Assembly: GCA_965224245.1 (NCBI GenBank)
Contig: OZ245046.1
Span: 960,001 to 1,024,000 of the forward strand
Direction of reading: 5' to 3'
Length of the DNA: 64,000 bases
Source of the DNA: Candidatus Eiseniibacteriota bacterium
GTDB lineage: Bacteria; Eisenbacteria; RBG-16-71-46; CAZAMP01
Every line of letters begins with the position of its first letter. Position 1 is the first letter of the stretch. The notes beneath the pieces are model-generated. The model had not been told where the DNA came from and did not search any database. It saw only the letters and a list, made by a program, of their open reading frames with translations. Made by a program: the position numbers and the translations under genes. Below, in pieces: positions 42,116-50,606 of the stretch.

Positions 42116-45100
42116 TCACAGGACCTCTTCGTCTATCTCGTCCTCGTCCTTGTCGATCCCGGGAGGCTGGGCCGCCTCCCGGCCGTTCCGGGGCACGGCA
42201 TCGCGGAGCTCCGGTGCGGGCGCGTCGGATGGACTGGCCGGCTCGATGCCCGGGTTCCGACCCGGGCCGGGCGCGTCGCCCGCGGGAGCCGCGCTCAGGG
42301 GCGGACCCGTGCGCAGCTGATCGATGCCCGGACCGGGACGCGGGCCGACCACCTGGGGGAGGACGGGCCTCCCGCCGACTCCACGGAGGAGGTCGTTGAA
42401 GCGTCCGGCCTGCTCCTCCAGATCGGCTTCGAGGGGATCGTACTCCTGTGTTGGTGGTTCCTCGGCCGCCGTGGACGGGGCCTGCTCACTTCTGATCCGC
42501 TCGTGGTACTCCCGCGCCAGTTCATCGGGGTCCGTGCCTCCCATCATCTGTGCCCATACGCCGAAGCCGTAACCTCCACCGTTCAACCAGTCGTACTGAC
42601 GATGCCAGCTGAGATTCGGATCCTCGGGAAGATCCCTGGGGTCGGTTCCCAGCGGATCGACCCGCGAGAGAGGATTCTGGAAGAACGCCTGGTAGGGATT
42701 GATGCTTTGCGGCTCGCGCAGTCCCAGAGGATCGCGTGAGATGAACCGGGCGCAGATCGGATCGTAGTACCGCGCCCGCATGGAGTAGAGATGGCCGTCG
42801 CGCACCACCCCGTACCGCCCGTGGAACGTGAAGGGGCTGTCCGACGCGCCGCTCTCGGCGAGGAGCCTGCCGAGGGCGTCGTAGGCGTAGCTGTCCGTGA
42901 TCGCGCCCGTGCCGTCGGTGAGGAAGATCGTCGAGCCCACCTCGTCGAAGTGGTGGAAGCGCGGCGAGTCGTCCCCGGCGTCGATCGTGTGCAAGAGGAG
43001 GCCGCCGGGTGTGTGGACGCAGTACGTGCGATCCACGGAACCGCGGGCGACACCTCCGTCACGGATCACCGAGATCGCGGGCAGACCGAGTGCGTAGTTC
43101 CAGACGAACCCCTGCGTCTCGGGCCCCTCGGAACGCGTGAGCACGTTGCCGAACGCGTCCCGGGTGAACCCGACCGGGGTCACCCCGTCGGAGTAGCTCT
43201 CGAGGCGTGAGGCCAGGTCCCAGGCGTACGTGTGCGTCCCGTCGTCGAGGAGACGCCCCATGTCGTCGTAGCTCGCGCCCACGACCTGGTTAGCCGGGTC
43301 GTACTCGTACTCGGTCAGTCCGAGTGCCGGTGTGGCGTGGAGCGGCACGTTCCGCACGGCCCCGGTGATGAGCCCCCGCGCATCCCGGGTGAGCGCGATC
43401 GACGAGAGCCCCGGTCCCTCGGTCGTCGCGATCAGGAGGTCCCGCTCGTCGTACGTGAACGCGGTCGTGACCCCGTTGGGTCGCTCGATCGAGGTGAGCC
43501 GCCGGTCGGAGTCGTAGGTGAGCGTCGTCATGCCCACCCAGTCGGTCACCGTGACCGGGAGCCCCCGGGCATCGTAGCCGTAGGTCACGACCTTGCCCGG
43601 GGCCAGGGTCAGCACCTCGAGCCGGCCGTCGGCGTCGTAGGTCATCGAGAGCCCGTTGCAATCGGTCAGTCGGTCGGCGGCGTCGTAGGCGAAGCTCGTG
43701 CCCGTGGCGGTGAGGAGCCGATCGTCGGCGTCGTAGCCGTACGCGAGCAGCGTGCCGTCGGAGTAGCTCCGCAGCACGAGGCGGCCCGCGGCGTCGTAGG
43801 TGAAGTTCACGACGCCGAGCCCGCCGGGGAGTGTGATCTCGCTGACCCGGCTCCGGTCGTCGTAGGTGTAGAAGTACTGGTTCCCGAGGGGATCACTCTC
43901 GGACGTCACGCGCCCGTGCGCATCGGCCGGGTTCTGCCACAGGAAGCCGCGCGGATCGGTGACGCTCGCCACCTGCATGAGCCCGTTCCGATCGTAGCTG
44001 GCCAGGATCCCCGGTGCGGCCAGCGCGACCTCGGAGATCCTCTCGTTGCCGTCGCGGGTGACGTTGGTGGTCGCCGCCACGGGGTCCGTCACGCGCACGA
44101 TGCGGCCCAGTGCGTCGTACGTGTAGCCCACAACATCCCCCAGCGGTGACTGCACCTCCGTGAGCCGACCCAGGGCGTCGCTCGTGAACGTCCACGTGTC
44201 GGCCAGGGGGGAGCGGATCGATGTCGGCACTCCCTCGGCGTCGTACGTGTAGATCCAGATCCCACCCGCCTCGTCCGTCAGCGAGGTGAGCCGACCCCGC
44301 GCGTCGTAGTCGAAGCTCACGACATCGCCCACCGGGTCGGTGATCGTCGCGATCCGTCGGAGGCCGTCTCGGGTGGCAGCGGTCACCAGGCCCAGGGGAT
44401 CGGTCACCGCCGTCAGGTCGTCGTTGAGGTCATACCCGAAGAGCGCCGAATGTCCGAGAGGGTCGGTGTGCATCCGTAGGTTGTCGTTGTCGTCGTAGGC
44501 GAAACCGGTGACGTGCCCGTTCTCGTCGGTGACGCTGGTGACGTTGTCGCTCGGGTCGTAGCCGATCGCGACCGTCACGCCGCCGGGACGGGTGATGAGA
44601 ATCGGGCGCTTGGCCGCGTCGTAGCCATGGGCCGTCGTGTTGCCGGATGGATCGGTGGCCGAGAGGAGCGTGGCGTCGGCGTCGTAGACGTACGTCCAGA
44701 CGCCCCCGTCCGGGTTCGTCACGGTCAGCGCCTGCCCCGCCGGGTTCCGGGTGTAGCTCCAGGTGTTCGCCTCGCGATCGGTGAACGAGACCACGTTGCC
44801 CGCCGCATCGTAGGTGATCGCGGCCGCCGCGCCGGTGGGGTAGTCGATGCCGGTGAGCACGTGGAACGTGAATCCGTCCTGGACCTGCGGGGTGTAGGTA
44901 TAGGTGAACGTGTTCCCGAGGTTGTCCGTCCGGCTCGTGACGTAGCCCGACATGGGGTCATGCGTGAGCGAGCTCGTGTCGCCCAGGCGGTCTGTCGTCG
45001 ATATCCGCCGGTGAAAGCCGTCGTAGGCGTAGTGGACCGTGTTTCCGGCCTCGTCCACGAAGCCCACGAGGCGACGCTCCGGGTTGAAGAGGTGGCTTCG

Positions 45101-47137
45101 CGGATTCCCCAGGGGATCGGTGATCGTCGTCGCGCCGGGCCCGTACGCGAAGCTCGTCACGTTGAGCTCGCCGTCGGCCTGGGCCAGCACGCGACCGTTC
45201 GGGAGGTAGGCGTTCTGGATCGGCACGTTGCCCACGGGCTCGGTGATCGCGAGAATGCGGCTGGCGCCGTCGTACGCGTACTGGGTCGTCTTCGCATCGG
45301 GGTCCGTGACCGTGGTCAGGTCCCTGCCCGTGTAGCCGTACTGCACCGTCCGACCACTCTGGTCGGTGACCGACACGATGCGGGGCGCGGCCCCGCTCAC
45401 CACGTAGCCGAAGCTCAGGGTTCGCCCCACGCCATCGTCGATCAGGGCCAGCGTGCCGTCGGGGTTGTAGGTGAGCGTATGTGTGTTGCCGCTCCGGTCT
45501 CGCACCCGCTCCAGCGGGCTCTGCTCCTGATCGGCCAGGGAGGCGAACTCGAACGTGAACATCAGGCGATTGACCGGATCCATCATCTCGAGCGTCGTGC
45601 CACTCTCGACCAGCTGAAACGGTGTGCCCCGGAAGGTGGTGAACCCCAGCGGGGCCGGCACCATCTGCCAGTCGGGACCCACCTTCTCGAAGAAGATCAC
45701 CATCCCGCGCTGGTAGTAGATCGCGACCCGGGTGGCGCCGAGTCGCAAGAGTGCATACTGATGGTTGTGCACCCAGTTCGCGCCCACGGGGCTGGATCCT
45801 GGAGCGTAGAAGCCCCAGAACGCGGCCGACTGGCCCACGAACGACCCGTGGTGGCGCGCGAAGCGGAGGGGAAGGTGGCCGCCGAGATCGAGGTCGGTGG
45901 CCCACGTGACGTACTCACCCAGCGATGTCACCACCGGATCGCTCGCTGCCGGTGGCGGAGACGGCTCGTTCGAGAGGGTCCGGAGCTCACCGAGCTCACC
46001 GAGCTCGAGCGCGCCGAGTTCGCCAAGCTCGTCGAGTTCACCGAGCGCGCCGACGTCGGAGCCGTTCGACCCACTCGACGGGAGCAGATCCGGATACCGG
46101 TACAGCTCCCCGGAAGTGGGCGGTGGGCGAACCTCTGCCGTCGTCGAGCAGTCGACCGCCGCCCCCCGGTCGTCGGTCACGGTCAACGTGACGACGTAGC
46201 TGTTCGGCGTCGTGTAGACGTGAGTCGGCGTCGGACCGCTTCCCATCGCGCCATCGCCGAAGTCCCAGTCGTAGCCGGCGATGCTTCCATCGGAATCGAA
46301 AGAGCCCGTGCCGTCGAACGTGATCGGCTCGTCGACCACGCCGCCGTAGGGCCCACCCGCGTCGCACACCGGAGGTGAGTTCGACGTCGTGTCGCACTCG
46401 GTGGAGATCGTCAGCTCCACGGCCCAGCGGTCTCCGAACCCGAGGTCGTTCAGGTCGGTCCAGCTGCCGTGCTCCCCGCTCAGGTTGACGTACGCATTGC
46501 CCGGGATCCCCGTTACGCCCTCGCGTCCGATCGACCAGTCCGCGGGAACGGTTCCGTTCACGTAGATCACCCCGACATACAGACGCTCGCCCTCGGTCAC
46601 CTCGCACGGGCATCCCGCGCTGACGAAGGAGACGTACTCGTGAACGACCGGACCTGCCTCGGGGATCGTGACGTCGAGAACCTTGGCGCACTCGCTACCG
46701 CAGGCGTCGTCGGGGATGCCACCTGCATCGCGCCAGAGGTAGAGATGGTATTGATCGCCGGGGTCGGCCTGCTCGAACCGGATGCGGGTTGCGGTCACGA
46801 CTCCGGCCGAGCACGCCTCGACCGCGAAGGCCATCCCGATGAGGTTCTGCGGGGTGCGGGCCGGGAACTCGGCGGGGACGCAATCACCCTGGACGAAGCT
46901 GCCCTCCAGACCCAGCGATGCACCCGTGGGAACCGCTCCCTGATCGGAGACGCACCCGGGTGAAGACCCCGACGCGCGGGCCGCCTCGCCCCGGGAATCG
47001 ACGCCGGTAGGCGGTGTGGTGCGAACGGTCGCTCGCTCGGCGTCTGCCGGCAGGGAGGTCAGGAGCGCGGCCAGGAGCGCAACCATGCCGGGGTATGACA
47101 TGCCTGACTTCCTGAAGACGGCCACGCTGTTGGACAT
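42116..47137 (-). CDS. Rhs/YD-repeat protein: signal peptide, beta-sandwich, PKD, DUF6531-like, YD barrel, Rhs core, Pro/acidic C-terminal cargo
   Basis: PKD AGGPY...YDWDFGDG...VTLTVTDD; DPV..GEY; many YD..GR repeats; core YDALGR...YSMRARYYDP...RFISRDP...NPLSRVDPLG. Confidence 0.92.
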   Translation of the reverse strand: MSNSVAVFRKSGMSYPGMVALLAALLTSLPADAERATVRTTPPTGVDSRGEAARASGSSPGCVSDQGAVPTGASLGLEGSFVQGDCVPAEFPARTPQNLIGMAFAVEACSAGVVTATRIRFEQADPGDQYHLYLWRDAGGIPDDACGSECAKVLDVTIPEAGPVVHEYVSFVSAGCPCEVTEGERLYVGVIYVNGTVPADWSIGREGVTGIPGNAYVNLSGEHGSWTDLNDLGFGDRWAVELTISTECDTTSNSPPVCDAGGPYGGVVDEPITFDGTGSFDSDGSIAGYDWDFGDGAMGSGPTPTHVYTTPNSYVVTLTVTDDRGAAVDCSTTAEVRPPPTSGELYRYPDLLPSSGSNGSDVGALGELDELGELGALELGELGELRTLSNEPSPPPAASDPVVTSLGEYVTWATDLDLGGHLPLRFARHHGSFVGQSAAFWGFYAPGSSPVGANWVHNHQYALLRLGATRVAIYYQRGMVIFFEKVGPDWQMVPAPLGFTTFRGTPFQLVESGTTLEMMDPVNRLMFTFEFASLADQEQSPLERVRDRSGNTHTLTYNPDGTLALIDDGVGRTLSFGYVVSGAAPRIVSVTDQSGRTVQYGYTGRDLTTVTDPDAKTTQYAYDGASRILAITEPVGNVPIQNAYLPNGRVLAQADGELNVTSFAYGPGATTITDPLGNPRSHLFNPERRLVGFVDEAGNTVHYAYDGFHRRISTTDRLGDTSSLTHDPMSGYVTSRTDNLGNTFTYTYTPQVQDGFTFHVLTGIDYPTGAAAAITYDAAGNVVSFTDREANTWSYTRNPAGQALTVTNPDGGVWTYVYDADATLLSATDPSGNTTAHGYDAAKRPILITRPGGVTVAIGYDPSDNVTSVTDENGHVTGFAYDDNDNLRMHTDPLGHSALFGYDLNDDLTAVTDPLGLVTAATRDGLRRIATITDPVGDVVSFDYDARGRLTSLTDEAGGIWIYTYDAEGVPTSIRSPLADTWTFTSDALGRLTEVQSPLGDVVGYTYDALGRIVRVTDPVAATTNVTRDGNERISEVALAAPGILASYDRNGLMQVASVTDPRGFLWQNPADAHGRVTSESDPLGNQYFYTYDDRSRVSEITLPGGLGVVNFTYDAAGRLVLRSYSDGTLLAYGYDADDRLLTATGTSFAYDAADRLTDCNGLSMTYDADGRLEVLTLAPGKVVTYGYDARGLPVTVTDWVGMTTLTYDSDRRLTSIERPNGVTTAFTYDERDLLIATTEGPGLSSIALTRDARGLITGAVRNVPLHATPALGLTEYEYDPANQVVGASYDDMGRLLDDGTHTYAWDLASRLESYSDGVTPVGFTRDAFGNVLTRSEGPETQGFVWNYALGLPAISVIRDGGVARGSVDRTYCVHTPGGLLLHTIDAGDDSPRFHHFDEVGSTIFLTDGTGAITDSYAYDALGRLLAESGASDSPFTFHGRYGVVRDGHLYSMRARYYDPICARFISRDPLGLREPQSINPYQAFFQNPLSRVDPLGTDPRDLPEDPNLSWHRQYDWLNGGGYGFGVWAQMMGGTDPDELAREYHERIRSEQAPSTAAEEPPTQEYDPLEADLEEQAGRFNDLLRGVGGRPVLPQVVGPRPGPGIDQLRTGPPLSAAPAGDAPGPGRNPGIEPASPSDAPAPELRDAVPRNGREAAQPPGIDKDEDEIDEEVL

Positions 47138-47356
47138 CGACGCTCCACGGTTGCACGTTCGGCACGCCTGAATCCTGGCTCACGGCCTCAATGGTGTCAT
47201 ACAAGCACGGGATGGGTGTACTGGAAACCGGGGAGAACGCGCGGCGAAGGCGGATGAGCCCGATCCGGCTGCAGATGAGACGTCCGCCCCCTCGTCCCGA
47301 TCGATGGTTTCGGTTAGAATTCATCCTGGAGTGCGGCTCACGCGGAGGCTCGAAGG

Positions 47357-47899
47357 ATGATGCGCCAGACACGAAACCCCGGTGTGACGAGAGGCTCGAC
47401 GGCGGCGCTGGGCGTCGCGCTGGCCCTGGCACTCACCCTCACGCCCCTCGCCGCCGCCGAGCTCTCGTATGTCTACGACGAGATCGGACGACTCACCACC
47501 GTCGTCCACGGCGACTCGCTGACCGTCTCCTACGAGTACGACGCGAACGGAAACATCCTGTCGGTGGCCGTGGAGTCGGGGATGCTGGACGTGGGAGAGA
47601 GCGAGCCACCCGCATTGCCGACGACGTTCGGGCTCGGGCATCCACCGGAGAATCCCGTGAGGCATTCGACGCGGATCCCGTTTCAGCTCGCCGGGGCCCG
47701 GAAGGTGACGCTCGACGTCTACGACGCCGTGGGGCGCCGCGTCCGGCGGCTCGTGGAGGGCCCCATGCCCGCCGGCTTCCACGATGCGAGCTGGGATGGA
47801 CTCACGGACGGGGGGGCGACGGCGGCGCCGGGGGTTTATCTCTACCGCATCGTTGCCGGCTCCTACACCGCGACCCGGAAGCTCGTCCTCGTCCGGTAA
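47357..47899 (+). CDS. Small secreted protein: ~40-aa YD-repeat module fused directly to FlgD/T9SS-like CTD
   Basis: Signal peptide (...PLAAA); ELSYVYDEIGRLTTVVHGDSLTVSYEYDANGNILSV; CTD ENP...YDAVGRRVRRL...WDG...PGVYLYR. Confidence 0.88.
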   Translation: MMRQTRNPGVTRGSTAALGVALALALTLTPLAAAELSYVYDEIGRLTTVVHGDSLTVSYEYDANGNILSVAVESGMLDVGESEPPALPTTFGLGHPPENPVRHSTRIPFQLAGARKVTLDVYDAVGRRVRRLVEGPMPAGFHDASWDGLTDGGATAAPGVYLYRIVAGSYTATRKLVLVR

Positions 47900-47929: not shown

Positions 47930-49468
47930 TCAGTGATCGACGACGAGTCTCCGGGTCTCGCTGGAGCCACCGGCCTCGAGGCGGTAGAAGTAGGTGCCCG
48001 TCGCGACACGCCGTCCGGACTGATCCCGGCCGCGCCAGACACACGCGTGCTGACGACCGCTCGCCACGAACCCGTTCAACAAACTCCGGACGCGGCGCCC
48101 GCTGCCATCGTAGACGTCCAGTCGAACGTACGTGTCCACGGAGACCGAGAACGTGATCCGTGTGCCGGGTCGGAACGGGTTCGGCGCGTTCTGAGCGAGG
48201 GAAAGTCGCACGTTCGGAACGAAGCTCGGCCCGATGACTGCCAGGAGATCCGAGCGCGGCCACTCCACGACGGAGAAGCGATACTGCTGATCGACCCCCC
48301 TGTCCGATTGGCGCAGCTCCACCGACGACGGGCCCACGAGCTGGATCCCGATCGACCCGTGAGGGAAGTCATCGGTGCCCTCGCAGCGTGCGGTTTCCCC
48401 CATGATCGACGTCGAGTCCACTGGCACCGGGACGATCGAGTCCGTCCAGATGTCTTCCCCCGCTCCTGCATCCGTCCAGCGCGTGCCCGACAGGTGCTGG
48501 ACGGTCATGCGATCGTTCGACACGATCCAGGCCACGGTCGTGATGGAGCTCGGGTCCGGCACGGTGCTCGGAAGCTGAAAGCGGATCGTGTCGACGTCCG
48601 AGAGCCACACCTCGGCGCCCTGCTCATCCACTCGAGAGCCGCCGCTCCGGTGCTGAGCATGAAGGAACGTCCGTGCAGGGGCGAAGGGCGTGGGAAGAAC
48701 CTCGTCCTCGACGTCACCGGCCGAGTCGTAGACGTGCTCGACTCGTTGCATGGACCAGTTCTCGCCCGTGAGCTCGATGACGGCGTAGGAGACGGTCGCC
48801 TCGAACCCCGTGCCGCCTCGCGTGAGTACGGGCTCGTCCCAATCGGGATCCCAGGCCGCCGTACACATCGCCTGATGAACGCCGTCGGGCGTGGAGTGGC
48901 TCGAGGCCTGGCCCGTGATGAACACGACGACGTCGTCGTGATCGAGGATCCCGGATGTGGCGTCCCCCCGAGCTTCATCGGCCCAGACGGGATCGAACGA
49001 GACGAAGCCCGTCCCGCGAACCTCGACGGCATTCGCGCCGGACGACTCTCCCTGGTACTCGACGAGCTCCCACGTGATCCGTGTGTCGCCCTGGTCGGAG
49101 TACCGGCTGAACGTGAAGTGAGTATCGAGGCTGCCGGCTTCGGAGATCCAGACCATCCATCGGTCCGCATCCTGGCGTCCGCCGCCGCTCGTCGCTCCCA
49201 TGCCCGTGAGTCGGGTGCCGGTGATGCGGACGAACGCAGGGCCCACGGGAGGCACGTAGTCGAGCGCGGCCGCAGTCATCGACACGTCGGTGCTACCGTG
49301 TTCGATCACGGTCGTTCCGCGTTGCACGGAGAAGTCGCTGGACGCCGTAGCGCCGGTGGCAGCGAGCGTGAGGCCGAGGACGAGTGCGGGCACGCTGCCG
49401 GCCAGCCACGAGCTCGTACCCATCCTCCGCAGGGTCTCCCGGGTCCGTGTGATGAGATCGGCGTGCAT
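47930..49468 (-). CDS. Secreted hypothetical protein (repeated 'VQRG...W..VE' beta units) with FlgD/T9SS-like CTD
   Basis: GGGAG RBS before ATG 49468; hydrophobic leader; LAQNAPNPF...YDGSGRRVR...TGTYFYRL. Confidence 0.8.
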   Translation of the reverse strand: MHADLITRTRETLRRMGTSSWLAGSVPALVLGLTLAATGATASSDFSVQRGTTVIEHGSTDVSMTAAALDYVPPVGPAFVRITGTRLTGMGATSGGGRQDADRWMVWISEAGSLDTHFTFSRYSDQGDTRITWELVEYQGESSGANAVEVRGTGFVSFDPVWADEARGDATSGILDHDDVVVFITGQASSHSTPDGVHQAMCTAAWDPDWDEPVLTRGGTGFEATVSYAVIELTGENWSMQRVEHVYDSAGDVEDEVLPTPFAPARTFLHAQHRSGGSRVDEQGAEVWLSDVDTIRFQLPSTVPDPSSITTVAWIVSNDRMTVQHLSGTRWTDAGAGEDIWTDSIVPVPVDSTSIMGETARCEGTDDFPHGSIGIQLVGPSSVELRQSDRGVDQQYRFSVVEWPRSDLLAVIGPSFVPNVRLSLAQNAPNPFRPGTRITFSVSVDTYVRLDVYDGSGRRVRSLLNGFVASGRQHACVWRGRDQSGRRVATGTYFYRLEAGGSSETRRLVVDH

Positions 49469-49958
49469 CGATCGTCTCCCGAGAGCGGGGGCCCGCTGCC
49501 GGCATGTGTCAGGTACGAGTCTAAGGCATCTGGAGTGAGGCGAGATTCGCCGCGCCGACATTGAATGCTGATCACCAGGAGCGTGGTCGCTGCCAACCAC
49601 GGGCTCGAGGGGCCTCTCCGCACCGTTGCCTGAAACGGCGCTCGGCTCATCGTCGTGGCCCGCTGACAGGTAAGGAACGGCCAGCTGGTCGGCGGAGCCG
49701 AGCCCAGCGGCCCGCCTGGATGTGCCTGCAGGACACGGGCCCCTCTCGCGGTGTCCTGGAGGCTCGATCCCGACGAGAGCGCCTTCATGCACCGCGCGAG
49801 GCGGAAGACCGCACATGGCGTTGCCGAACGTCGTGCGCTCCGCTACGGTACACTCTGGCCCAGGGTCCGAGGGGAAGGCACTCCGGCCCGTGCAGAGCGT
49901 CGATGTGGCTCCCGCGTCGCGGAGCCACCGGTCATGTACCCCGACCTGGAGGCGCCCG

Positions 49959-50606
49959 TTGACCCGAGTGCTCATCGTCGCGTCGCTTGCGGTGCTGCCG
50001 GCCACCTCTGCCGCCTGGGACGAGATCCAGCGCCAGCAGGTGAACGACGAAGCCGAGATGTTCGCCTCGCACTGCTACGAGGAGATGTGGAACGAGGTCG
50101 CCGACGATGTGTACCTCGAGGGTGCGCTCGTCCAGGCAATCTCGTGGTGGGGGTTCTCCTACCACGATCGTGACCGGCTCGACTTCTACATCCGGTTCTA
50201 CGAGCGCACGGCGGAGGGAGCACCCGGAGCACTGGTCTACGAGCACCTGGCCGTGGACGTACCGGGTGAGGTCCGTCCCCCGTGGGGTCGGGAGTATCTC
50301 GCCGAGATCCCTCCGTTCCTGGCCAACGGCGACTACATGCTCAGCATCGTGGAGTACTGCCGAGACTACTACTTTCGCTGGCGGACCGGCGATGGCAACG
50401 ACGTGACGATCTGGATCCGTGGTGATCTCGATGGGGTTTCGCAGGGAGAGTGGACGAGTGGCGATCACCCCTGGATCGGCCTCGACGGGATCGACATGTC
50501 GTTCGTCCTGTGGGGCGAGCTACCGGCGACGCCGACCGAGGGCGTGAGCTGGTCGCGCATCAAGTCGACATATCGCGGATCGAGGCTCTCGAGCGGCCAG
50601 CGATGA
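49959..50606 (+). CDS. Secreted hypothetical beta-sandwich ('ADD...ISWWG') with short 'SWSRIK' tail
   Basis: GGAGG RBS before TTG 49959; MTRVLIVASLAVLPATSAA signal; ends ATPTEGVSWSRIKSTYRG... Confidence 0.75.
   Translation: MTRVLIVASLAVLPATSAAWDEIQRQQVNDEAEMFASHCYEEMWNEVADDVYLEGALVQAISWWGFSYHDRDRLDFYIRFYERTAEGAPGALVYEHLAVDVPGEVRPPWGREYLAEIPPFLANGDYMLSIVEYCRDYYFRWRTGDGNDVTIWIRGDLDGVSQGEWTSGDHPWIGLDGIDMSFVLWGELPATPTEGVSWSRIKSTYRGSRLSSGQR

Follow-up and report, generated by a model that had tools for sequence, protein, structure and literature searches.

Organization of the locus

The element under study lies in a window of 64,000 nucleotides from a Candidatus Eiseniibacteriota bacterium (G000:C1:960001-1024000; genome of 6.9 Mb with 66% G+C), the window being the whole stretch of DNA that was analysed. 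It is formed by a divergent pair of genes. One encodes an Rhs protein of 1673 amino acids (aa), here termed P0001 (42116..47137, minus strand), and the other a protein of 180 aa, P0002 (47357..47899, plus strand), which combines a pair of tyrosine-aspartate (YD) repeats with a C-terminal domain (CTD) of a type IX secretion system (T9SS) and is referred to below as the mini-protein. The two products may be subunits of a single secreted container, to which the mini-protein would contribute wall strands and a handle for export or anchoring. A spacer of 219 bp (47138..47356) separates the genes; a promoter scan of this spacer returned no sigma-70-type sites, and the three terminator-like sites correspond to chance level. 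A look-up of RNA runs returned none that covers the locus. The frame of the mini-protein looks like a real gene, judging from a GGAGG about 9 nt upstream of its ATG and from a G+C content at third codon positions (GC3) of 0.87, equal to that of the Rhs gene. Throughout the 6.9-Mb genome, the RHS_repeat family PF05593 gave 13 matches, 12 in the Rhs protein and one in the mini-protein, and the Rhs-associated core family TIGR03696 matched the Rhs protein only. The preliminary description of this DNA, made from its letters without database searches, had presented a 1673-aa Rhs protein with a Sec-type leader and with neither PAAR, VgrG nor CTD, and a 180-aa YD-plus-CTD gene lying divergently some 220 bp away; both statements were confirmed by scans against Pfam and NCBIfam, in which the mini-protein matches RHS_repeat and TIGR04183, the leader of the Rhs protein having been judged by eye.

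Architecture of the Rhs protein

The Rhs protein starts with a putative Sec signal peptide (residues 1-33; 47039..47137, minus strand, as are all features of this gene), recognized by eye from R9 and K10, a hydrophobic run at residues 17-29, and A-D-A before E34. The first 250 residues match no family and are followed by a PKD domain (residues 253-334; 46136..46381) identified by PF18911 (PKD_4) with 74.4 bits; PKD domains of collagenases in the PDB match the same stretch. A low-complexity linker of the G-E-L-G type, rich in Gly, Glu and Leu (residues ~335-399; 45940-46135), leads to the DUF6531 N-terminal plug region (residues 400-479; 45701..45940; PF20148, 31.0 bits, cut-off 24.1), which aligns with the plug-proximal part of the solved Rhs structure 7pq5. 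The YD-repeat shell occupies residues ~545-1418 (42884..45505), where RHS_repeat PF05593 matches in 13 stretches with a total of 305.6 bits, and is followed by the Rhs-associated core at residues 1419-1497 (42647..42883; TIGR03696, 53.6 bits, cut-off 32.5). Both D-P-x-G motifs are found when this core is aligned to solved Rhs cores, so that it appears to be a canonical self-cleaving core with aspartyl autoprotease motifs, and cleavage is predicted. The 176 aa that remain after the core (residues 1498-1673; 42119..42646) are acidic, Pro-rich, and presumed to be the cargo. No Pfam family matches this tail at E<=1, and its Atlas scores of at most 0.79 are at chance level. The earlier designation of the Rhs C-terminus as cargo thus agrees with the position after the core and finds no counterpart in a toxin family match, the cargo being assigned from position.

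Residues 400-1510, as modelled by AlphaFold 2 (AF2), form a regular meander of strands and turns, with a mean predicted local distance difference test (pLDDT) of 94.4 and a predicted template modelling score (pTM) of 0.86. In Foldseek comparisons it matches the solved cocoons of type VI secretion system (T6SS) Rhs proteins with E values of 1e-58 to 1e-64 (TMq 0.64 for 7q97), and TcB-TcC proteins appear among the fold matches at lower rank. By its repeats, core and fold, P0001 belongs to the Rhs family. No beta-propeller or TcA-type domain is present in or beside either protein of the pair, which is therefore no Tc toxin.

Models of PAAR, prePAAR, VgrG and CTD all failed to match the Rhs protein in the scans against Pfam and NCBIfam, and, given its Sec-type leader and the missing matches to PAAR, VgrG and adaptor domains, P0001 does not appear to be an Rhs protein of the T6SS type. 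The genome does encode a T6SS, and here the preliminary description is corrected: three matches to the sheath protein TssC/VipB (445.6, 323.2 and 133.5 bits) lie at G000:C1:1558468-1579327, about 551 kb from the pair. Delivery of the Rhs protein by this T6SS, or its release by lysis or in vesicles, would leave the mini-protein without relevance to the Rhs protein. The sheath matches at C1:1.558-1.579 Mb and the fact that the closest solved folds all belong to T6SS Rhs proteins are in accordance with such an explanation; it is nevertheless judged decidedly improbable, as the T6SS genes lie ~551 kb from the Rhs gene, PAAR, VgrG and prePAAR matches are lacking and a PKD domain is present, and the T6SS route in particular is disfavoured because the protein carries a Sec leader and no PAAR.

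Architecture of the mini-protein

All features of the mini-protein are on the plus strand. Its putative signal peptide (residues 1-34; 47357..47458), recognized from the translation, ends in A-A-A before E35 and contains a hydrophobic helix at residues 16-27 in the AF2 model; hydrophobic N-termini line up across the family. The mature protein begins with a YD hairpin pair of four strands (residues 36-40, 46-51, 55-61 and 67-74; 47459..47578), modelled with a pLDDT of 76-88 and matched by RHS_repeat PF05593 at residues 40-70 (32.9 bits, cut-off 22). A flexible linker follows (residues 75-98; 47579..47650), with a pLDDT below 50 at residues 76-93 and a variable sequence in the family, and the chain ends in a T9SS type A CTD with an Ig fold of the FlgD_ig type (47651..47896; pLDDT ~90). 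This last domain is matched by TIGR04183 at residues 99-178 (30.3 bits, cut-off 23) and by FlgD_ig PF13860 at residues 112-167 (45 bits, cut-off 27), and its fold matches are FlgD Ig domains and, more weakly, PorU.

The CTD is abundant in this genome, with 481 first-look candidates, and a CTD gene beside an Rhs gene therefore means little by itself; what carries information is the YD pair. The repeats of the mini-protein share 28-40% identity with Rhs repeats, with a best score of 27 bits, and were thus not copied recently from an Rhs gene.

Conservation of the pair

A protein search recovered four proteins of the same build (P0005-P0008), of 164-175 aa and 34-44% identical to the mini-protein. 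A profile of its N-terminus was then used to survey the 206 genomes of the phylum, which are the same set as those of the class (the tallies include the unpublished genome G083, on which no claim rests). The mini-protein is present in seven of them (G000, G010, G170, G180, G190, G193 and G196, the last five holding full-length members and G010 a divergent one), and in all seven its gene abuts that of a large CTD-less DUF6531 and RHS protein of ~1380-1690 aa. In G170, G180, G190, G193 and G196 it lies directly downstream on the same strand, overlapping or at a distance of up to 58 bp, and in G010 it lies upstream of the Rhs gene, also on the same strand. A metagenome scan with P0007 added 13 loci, with the Rhs gene followed by the mini-protein gene in L101/L102, L103, L104 and L108; L104 consists of two such pairs arranged tail to tail, and L105-L107 are too short for the arrangement to be judged. 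The co-occurrence of the two genes proposed at the outset is therefore found in the phylum (7 of 206 genomes, each time next to a CTD-less Rhs gene), on metagenome contigs and, with other tails, in Acidobacteriota, as described below.

Ten aligned mini-proteins, of 161-191 aa, all have a signal peptide ending in A-x-A, a variable linker and a CTD; they are only 27-44% identical to one another, and D41, R45, L46, Y59, Y61 and D62 are invariant. The shell of P0001 (residues 405-1467) is collinear with those of full-length mini-associated Rhs proteins at 33-40% identity (394-604 bits), and other Rhs proteins of the phylum reach 273 bits at most. A database search counted 5590 relatives of the shell. 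The pair seems to be co-inherited, since the mini-associated Rhs shells form one clade. Functional pairing of the two proteins is very likely.

The possibility that the mini-protein gene is the decayed remnant of a longer Rhs-CTD gene was raised in the preliminary description as a ground for rejecting its proposal. Longer forms were sought, and the 72 proteins returned matched the YD part or the CTD part; both parts were matched only by P0209, a cis-fused Rhs-CTD protein of another lineage, whose existence speaks for such an origin and whose match covers only 24% of the query. The CTD was absent from all 25 large YD open reading frames (ORFs) of the phylum that were examined, one of which is cut at its C-terminal end by a contig end. 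Decay is very unlikely, because there is no longer form besides P0209 among these proteins and none of the 25 ORFs carries a CTD; the constant length of 161-191 aa, the own signal peptide, the intact frame and the invariant YD residues across the family, as well as a GC3 equal to that of the Rhs gene, also argue against it. The mini-protein is a conserved family and not a gene fragment, as far as can be told from the aligned sequences.

Two wider searches gave no further full-length members. When 301 genomes from the phylum to which G207 (labelled Gemmatimonadales) belongs were searched with a profile, only matches to the CTD part appeared among the 11 candidates scored per genome, a weak indication of absence. 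A pattern scan of contigs with the mini-protein alignment returned 62 loci, mostly generic YD repeats in large proteins, with no full-length mini-protein among them; L004, L010, L011, L028 and L033, described below, are among these loci.

As regards the C-terminal part of the partners, a canonical core is retained, among mini-associated Rhs proteins, only by those of the window and of L109. The others (L075-L078, L101-L104 and L108) have a degenerate core lacking the D-P-x-G motifs and carry repeats of the P-Q-P-F-P-P type, and many of those without a canonical core end in C-x-W-C or C-x-x-C.

The YD hairpin with other tails

Hairpins of the same kind were also found joined to other C-terminal modules. 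At L109, a protein with a signal peptide and the hairpin continues with a Gly run, a hydrophobic or transmembrane (TM) helix and a basic tail, which resembles GlyGly-CTERM at a sub-threshold 11.8 bits; its gene lies downstream of that of an Rhs protein which shares 45% identity with P0001 and whose core is canonical (60 bits). The hairpin protein of L110 has an EF-hand or dockerin-like tail, likewise with a sub-threshold match. At L028 (Acidobacteriaceae), the frame of a hairpin protein bearing Ig repeats overlaps that of a 2314-aa Rhs protein at the latter's end, and at L033 (Desulfitobacterium) a hairpin protein follows a 1408-aa Rhs protein.

Acidobacteriota were sampled more widely. Hairpin matches were present in 16 of 401 genomes, and 12 loci were examined, leaving aside G208 (already covered), G327 and G389 (inside large frames) and G569 (short match). 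A large YD ORF occurs at 10 of the 12 loci, in eight cases at 20 bp or less or overlapping; none was seen at L117 and L125. The tails comprise dockerin-like, FN3/Ig and IPT modules and TM anchors that end in a basic stretch, and several of the Rhs proteins belong to the P0001 family (48% identity for L114, 37% for L121) and have a slot-like linker of the kind described below. Taken together, these gene arrangements suggest a modular hairpin whose tails are interchangeable and mostly sorting or anchoring devices; its genes mostly stand beside an Rhs gene.

Proteins with a single YD pair and no Rhs gene within 10 kb also exist (L004, L010, L011 and L040, on contigs labelled Firmicutes or Chloroflexota). 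One is fused to leucine-rich repeats, one is TM-anchored and one is tail-less; L040 bears the YD pair at its C-terminus.

Such stand-alone hairpin proteins (L004, L010 and L011) bear on a further explanation, in which the mini-protein would be a small surface protein of the T9SS in its own right, with a YD pair copied long ago from an Rhs gene, and the adjacency a result of common descent of the gene cluster. The generic nature of its repeats, 28-40% identical to many Rhs repeats, and the commonness of CTD genes in this genome would suit this explanation as well. It would have to account for an adjacency kept in all seven phylum genomes and in a second phylum by mini-proteins only 27-44% identical, and for a four-strand passenger of ~40 residues with no evident fold or function alone; the complex model described next, which passes its controls, also speaks against it. 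Independence of the mini-protein is thus considered improbable.

Predicted insertion into the shell

The complex was modelled from Rhs residues 551-1507 (alignment of 86 rows) and mini-protein residues 35-77, Rhs residues 400-550 and the cargo being omitted. The interface score ipSAE was 0.86 in three runs and 0.00 for the best of three controls; 58 out of 80 solved complexes attain this mark, as do 2 out of 110 mismatched pairs, a rough guide only, as own alignments were used. Contacts agree between runs to at least 99%, and the pLDDT of the partner is at least 87. In the model, mini-protein residues 36-40 pair antiparallel with Rhs residues 1256-1260, and residues 66-72 pair with Rhs residues 1272-1279, the interface comprising mini-protein residues 35-46 and 61-74. 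Further modelled contacts involve Rhs residues 1022-1064 in the neighbouring turn and residues 1420-1490 of the core; the artificial N-terminal edge at residue 551 makes none.

The predicted slot (43277..43378, minus strand) consists of a strand at residues 1256-1262, a linker at residues 1263-1271 with the motif R-x-V-P-L, a strand at residues 1272-1279, and coil up to residue 1287. The linker must cross over the mini-protein strands, because four strands are placed between two Rhs strands adjacent in sequence. R1262 and P1265 are near-invariant in 114 homologues, and 112 of the 114 rows have 42-47 aa in the slot region. In the AF2 monomer, the longest non-strand break of the shell lies at residues 1264-1287 (865-888 of the model; local pLDDT 82), residues 1272-1279 forming no strand there. 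Since that monomer contains the plug and shows its sole long break at this place, nothing in cis fills the slot. In 9 of 12 mini-associated Rhs proteins the linker carries R-x-x-P-L with D-x-A-x-Q after it, a motif that none of 18 other Rhs proteins of the phylum has.

In RhsA (PMC8765631), the protease core seals one end of the cocoon and an N-terminal plug caps the other. The omitted plug should therefore lie far from the predicted site, as plug and core cap opposite poles in RhsA and the site touches the core. In P0050 and P0070, ~32 extra residues stand exactly at the position of the predicted slot and stem from the two YD repeats that follow, duplicated in tandem; this insert may represent a slot filled in cis, an indication from sequence comparison that is suggestive and ambiguous.

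Insertion of the mini-protein strands at this slot is plausible and, judging from the model, fairly probable. The preliminary description had suggested a strand-complementation interface as the point to be examined, and the models place one in the shell wall. In an alternative, the role of the mini-protein would be mainly structural or mechanical: the two-chain shell would be real, the mini-protein would close the wall or act as a removable pin, its CTD would merely bring it to the same location, and the Rhs protein would exit the periplasm by another route. The predicted site touches the core at residues 1477-1490, a segment flanked by the two protease motifs; for RhsA, the authors propose that a seal is removed mechanically (PMC8765631); and the Ig/FN3 tails of hairpin proteins in Acidobacteriota are not obvious secretion tags. 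Most hairpin tails, however, are sorting or anchoring devices (T9SS CTD, TM anchor with basic tail, dockerin-like), and the Rhs protein shows no further export signal, which makes a mainly structural or mechanical role unlikely.

Secretion machinery and proposed mechanism

Components of what looks like a full T9SS are encoded in the genome: SprA as one frame of 2363 aa (540.1 bits summed, cut-off 200) and PorU (469.6 bits, cut-off 420), with a PorV-like gene adjoining the latter (92.8 bits, below the cut-off of 250). A connection between Rhs proteins and the T9SS is supported by P0209, a natural cis fusion of 1907 aa with DUF6531 and RHS repeats, a canonical core at residues 1132-1216 (60.7 bits) and a T9SS CTD at residues 1837-1900. 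Its CTD is placed after the self-cleaving core, ~620 residues beyond it. The premise of the preliminary description, by which the C-terminus of an Rhs protein is unable to provide a CTD, is therefore weakened and not absolute.

Other Rhs genes of the phylum have different CTD neighbours. A family of CTD proteins of ~620-670 aa is encoded directly upstream, on the same strand, of Rhs proteins of 2400-2580 aa at nine loci and in one cut copy (L083-L090, L098 and L099), with no Pfam match besides the CTD, and FG-GAP plus CTD proteins take the upstream place at three Rhs loci (L082, L097 and L100). When a YD hairpin was sought at the N-terminus of the ~640-aa and FG-GAP CTD partners, no match better than E 0.5 was obtained. 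These hairpin-less neighbours may be alternative solutions to the same problem, or an effect of the density of CTD genes.

The reading to which we lean, if only slightly, is that P0001 is a two-chain, Sec-exported Rhs container whose small subunit, the mini-protein, provides a handle for T9SS export or anchoring. Each protein would enter the periplasm by its own signal peptide. The mature N-terminus of the mini-protein, with its YD pair of four strands, would insert between Rhs residues 1256-1262 and 1272-1279, beside the core plug, and complete the sheet of the shell in trans. The flexible linker of ~25 residues would then display the type A CTD as a signal by which, we infer, the container without a tag of its own could pass through the SprA translocon or undergo PorU-dependent attachment at the cell surface. 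The interpretation offered in the preliminary description, a small protein that adds strands to the Rhs shell in trans and lends its CTD to it, is supported in this sense, with both the binding of the two proteins and the T9SS-dependent export or anchoring being predictions. A wider version would hold that Sec-exported DUF6531-RHS cocoons are in general two-chain, with a lineage-swapped hairpin tail as both handle and pull-out pin: tension on the tether upon contact would extract the strands, open the cocoon by the cleavage site and free the cargo. Such a generalization is regarded as unlikely.

A number of observations weigh against the two-chain export model. As to the prediction itself, the three controls included neither a non-cognate YD hairpin nor a non-partner Rhs protein, shell residues 400-550 and the cargo were absent from the complex, and part of the score may reflect likeness to known structures, because two-chain YD shells (TcB-TcC) have been solved. 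The association of the slot motif with the presence of a mini-protein is confounded by shared ancestry within one clade. As to gene order, the pair of the window is divergent and not translationally coupled like most of its relatives, only seven of the 43 phylum genomes (among 206) with RHS repeats hold a mini-protein, and no large YD gene lies within 10 kb of the hairpin genes of L004, L010 and L011, from Lachnospiraceae and relatives. A CTD of the FlgD_ig type ends 16 ORFs of the window, the mini-protein among them; most other Rhs genes of the phylum adjoin unrelated, hairpin-less CTD proteins; and P0209 carries its own CTD in cis. T6SS sheath genes exist in the same genome, and a folded cocoon may not fit the T9SS translocon.

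Comparison with known systems

The closest parallel for a shell of two chains is found in TcB-TcC proteins (YenB/YenC2 and TcdB2-TccC3), in which two YD chains meet in the wall, the core forms a plug and the cargo follows the core. The junction of TcB and TcC coincides with the wall gap through which the C-terminus of teneurin leaves (PMC5851990). The present pair differs in that the second chain has only four strands, not half of a shell, and bears a T9SS sorting domain, that propeller gate and TcA are missing from the P0001 pair, and that the predicted junction lies ~160 residues before the core. With the Rhs proteins of the T6SS (RhsA, 7q97; Tre23, 7pq5; Tse15; RhsP) P0001 shares the cocoon fold, the plug of the DUF6531 type and the canonical core; a Sec leader and a PKD domain stand in place of PAAR, VgrG or a clade domain. 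T6SS Rhs proteins are delivered by VgrG with the help of cytoplasmic chaperones, and wall strands supplied in trans are not described in the text available from PMC8765631.

Teneurins are similar in having a conserved and functional gap in the shell wall (PMC5851990). Their gap releases the C-terminus of the same protein, whereas that of P0001 is predicted to admit strands of another. Most mini-associated relatives, with their degenerate core and long C-terminal tails, recall uncleaved shells of the teneurin type. In comparison with T9SS type A cargo, the mini-protein has a putative signal peptide and a TIGR04183/FlgD_ig domain, in a genome with SprA and PorU; it differs by a passenger of only ~40 structured residues, the proposed real cargo being a separate, non-covalently bound protein. 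In P0209, the CTD is on the same chain as the Rhs repeats, ~620 residues after the core, and here it is on the separate mini-protein.

Co-export of a bound partner is known from hitch-hiking on the twin-arginine translocation (Tat) pathway, in which a folded protein without signal is exported by binding to a signal-bearing subunit. The comparison is one of analogy only, as membrane, machinery and mode of binding are all different. A full-text literature search, within the portions of text that it covered, returned nothing on an adaptor between the T9SS and Rhs proteins, on T9SS hitch-hiking, or on partner proteins with a YD hairpin. The new element would be the proposed union, namely a four-strand hairpin that complements the cocoon in trans and joins it to a sorting or anchoring module.

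Little is known of how Rhs containers not fired by a T6SS exit the cell, are retained on its surface and open. If the model is true, a YD hairpin acting in trans with a sorting module particular to each lineage would account for export and tethering at once, and the pair would be the first case known to us of a T9SS substrate that carries a separate folded protein. If the pull-out pin version is also true, T6SS-independent Rhs proteins would gain both a delivery and a trigger mechanism. The hairpin module, with its varied tails, occurs in at least two phyla, which points to a principle of a general kind and not to a local peculiarity. The mechanism predicts co-purification of the two proteins, four extra strands at a defined site of the shell, and localization of the Rhs protein that depends on the CTD.

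Neighbouring genes

The pair is flanked by CTD proteins with LVIVD repeats and BNR repeats, in a neighbourhood strongly enriched in CTD genes. At 360 bp downstream of the Rhs gene, an ORF of 134 aa (P0140; 41352..41756, minus strand; GC3 0.85) encodes a lipoprotein-like product with a lipobox-like L-V-A-G-C and a weak LPAM_1 match, without assignment to a family, and is a possible immunity or accessory gene. Beyond the mini-protein gene lies the ORF of a CTD protein of 691 aa (47930-50005, minus strand), which was considered as a member of the ~640-aa family encoded upstream of other Rhs genes and was rejected, only the CTD being in common. The 5' end of this ORF is probably over-extended, as a stretch resembling a signal peptide starts near residue 190, and its beginning is overlapped by a high-GC3 ORF at 49722-50606 on the plus strand.

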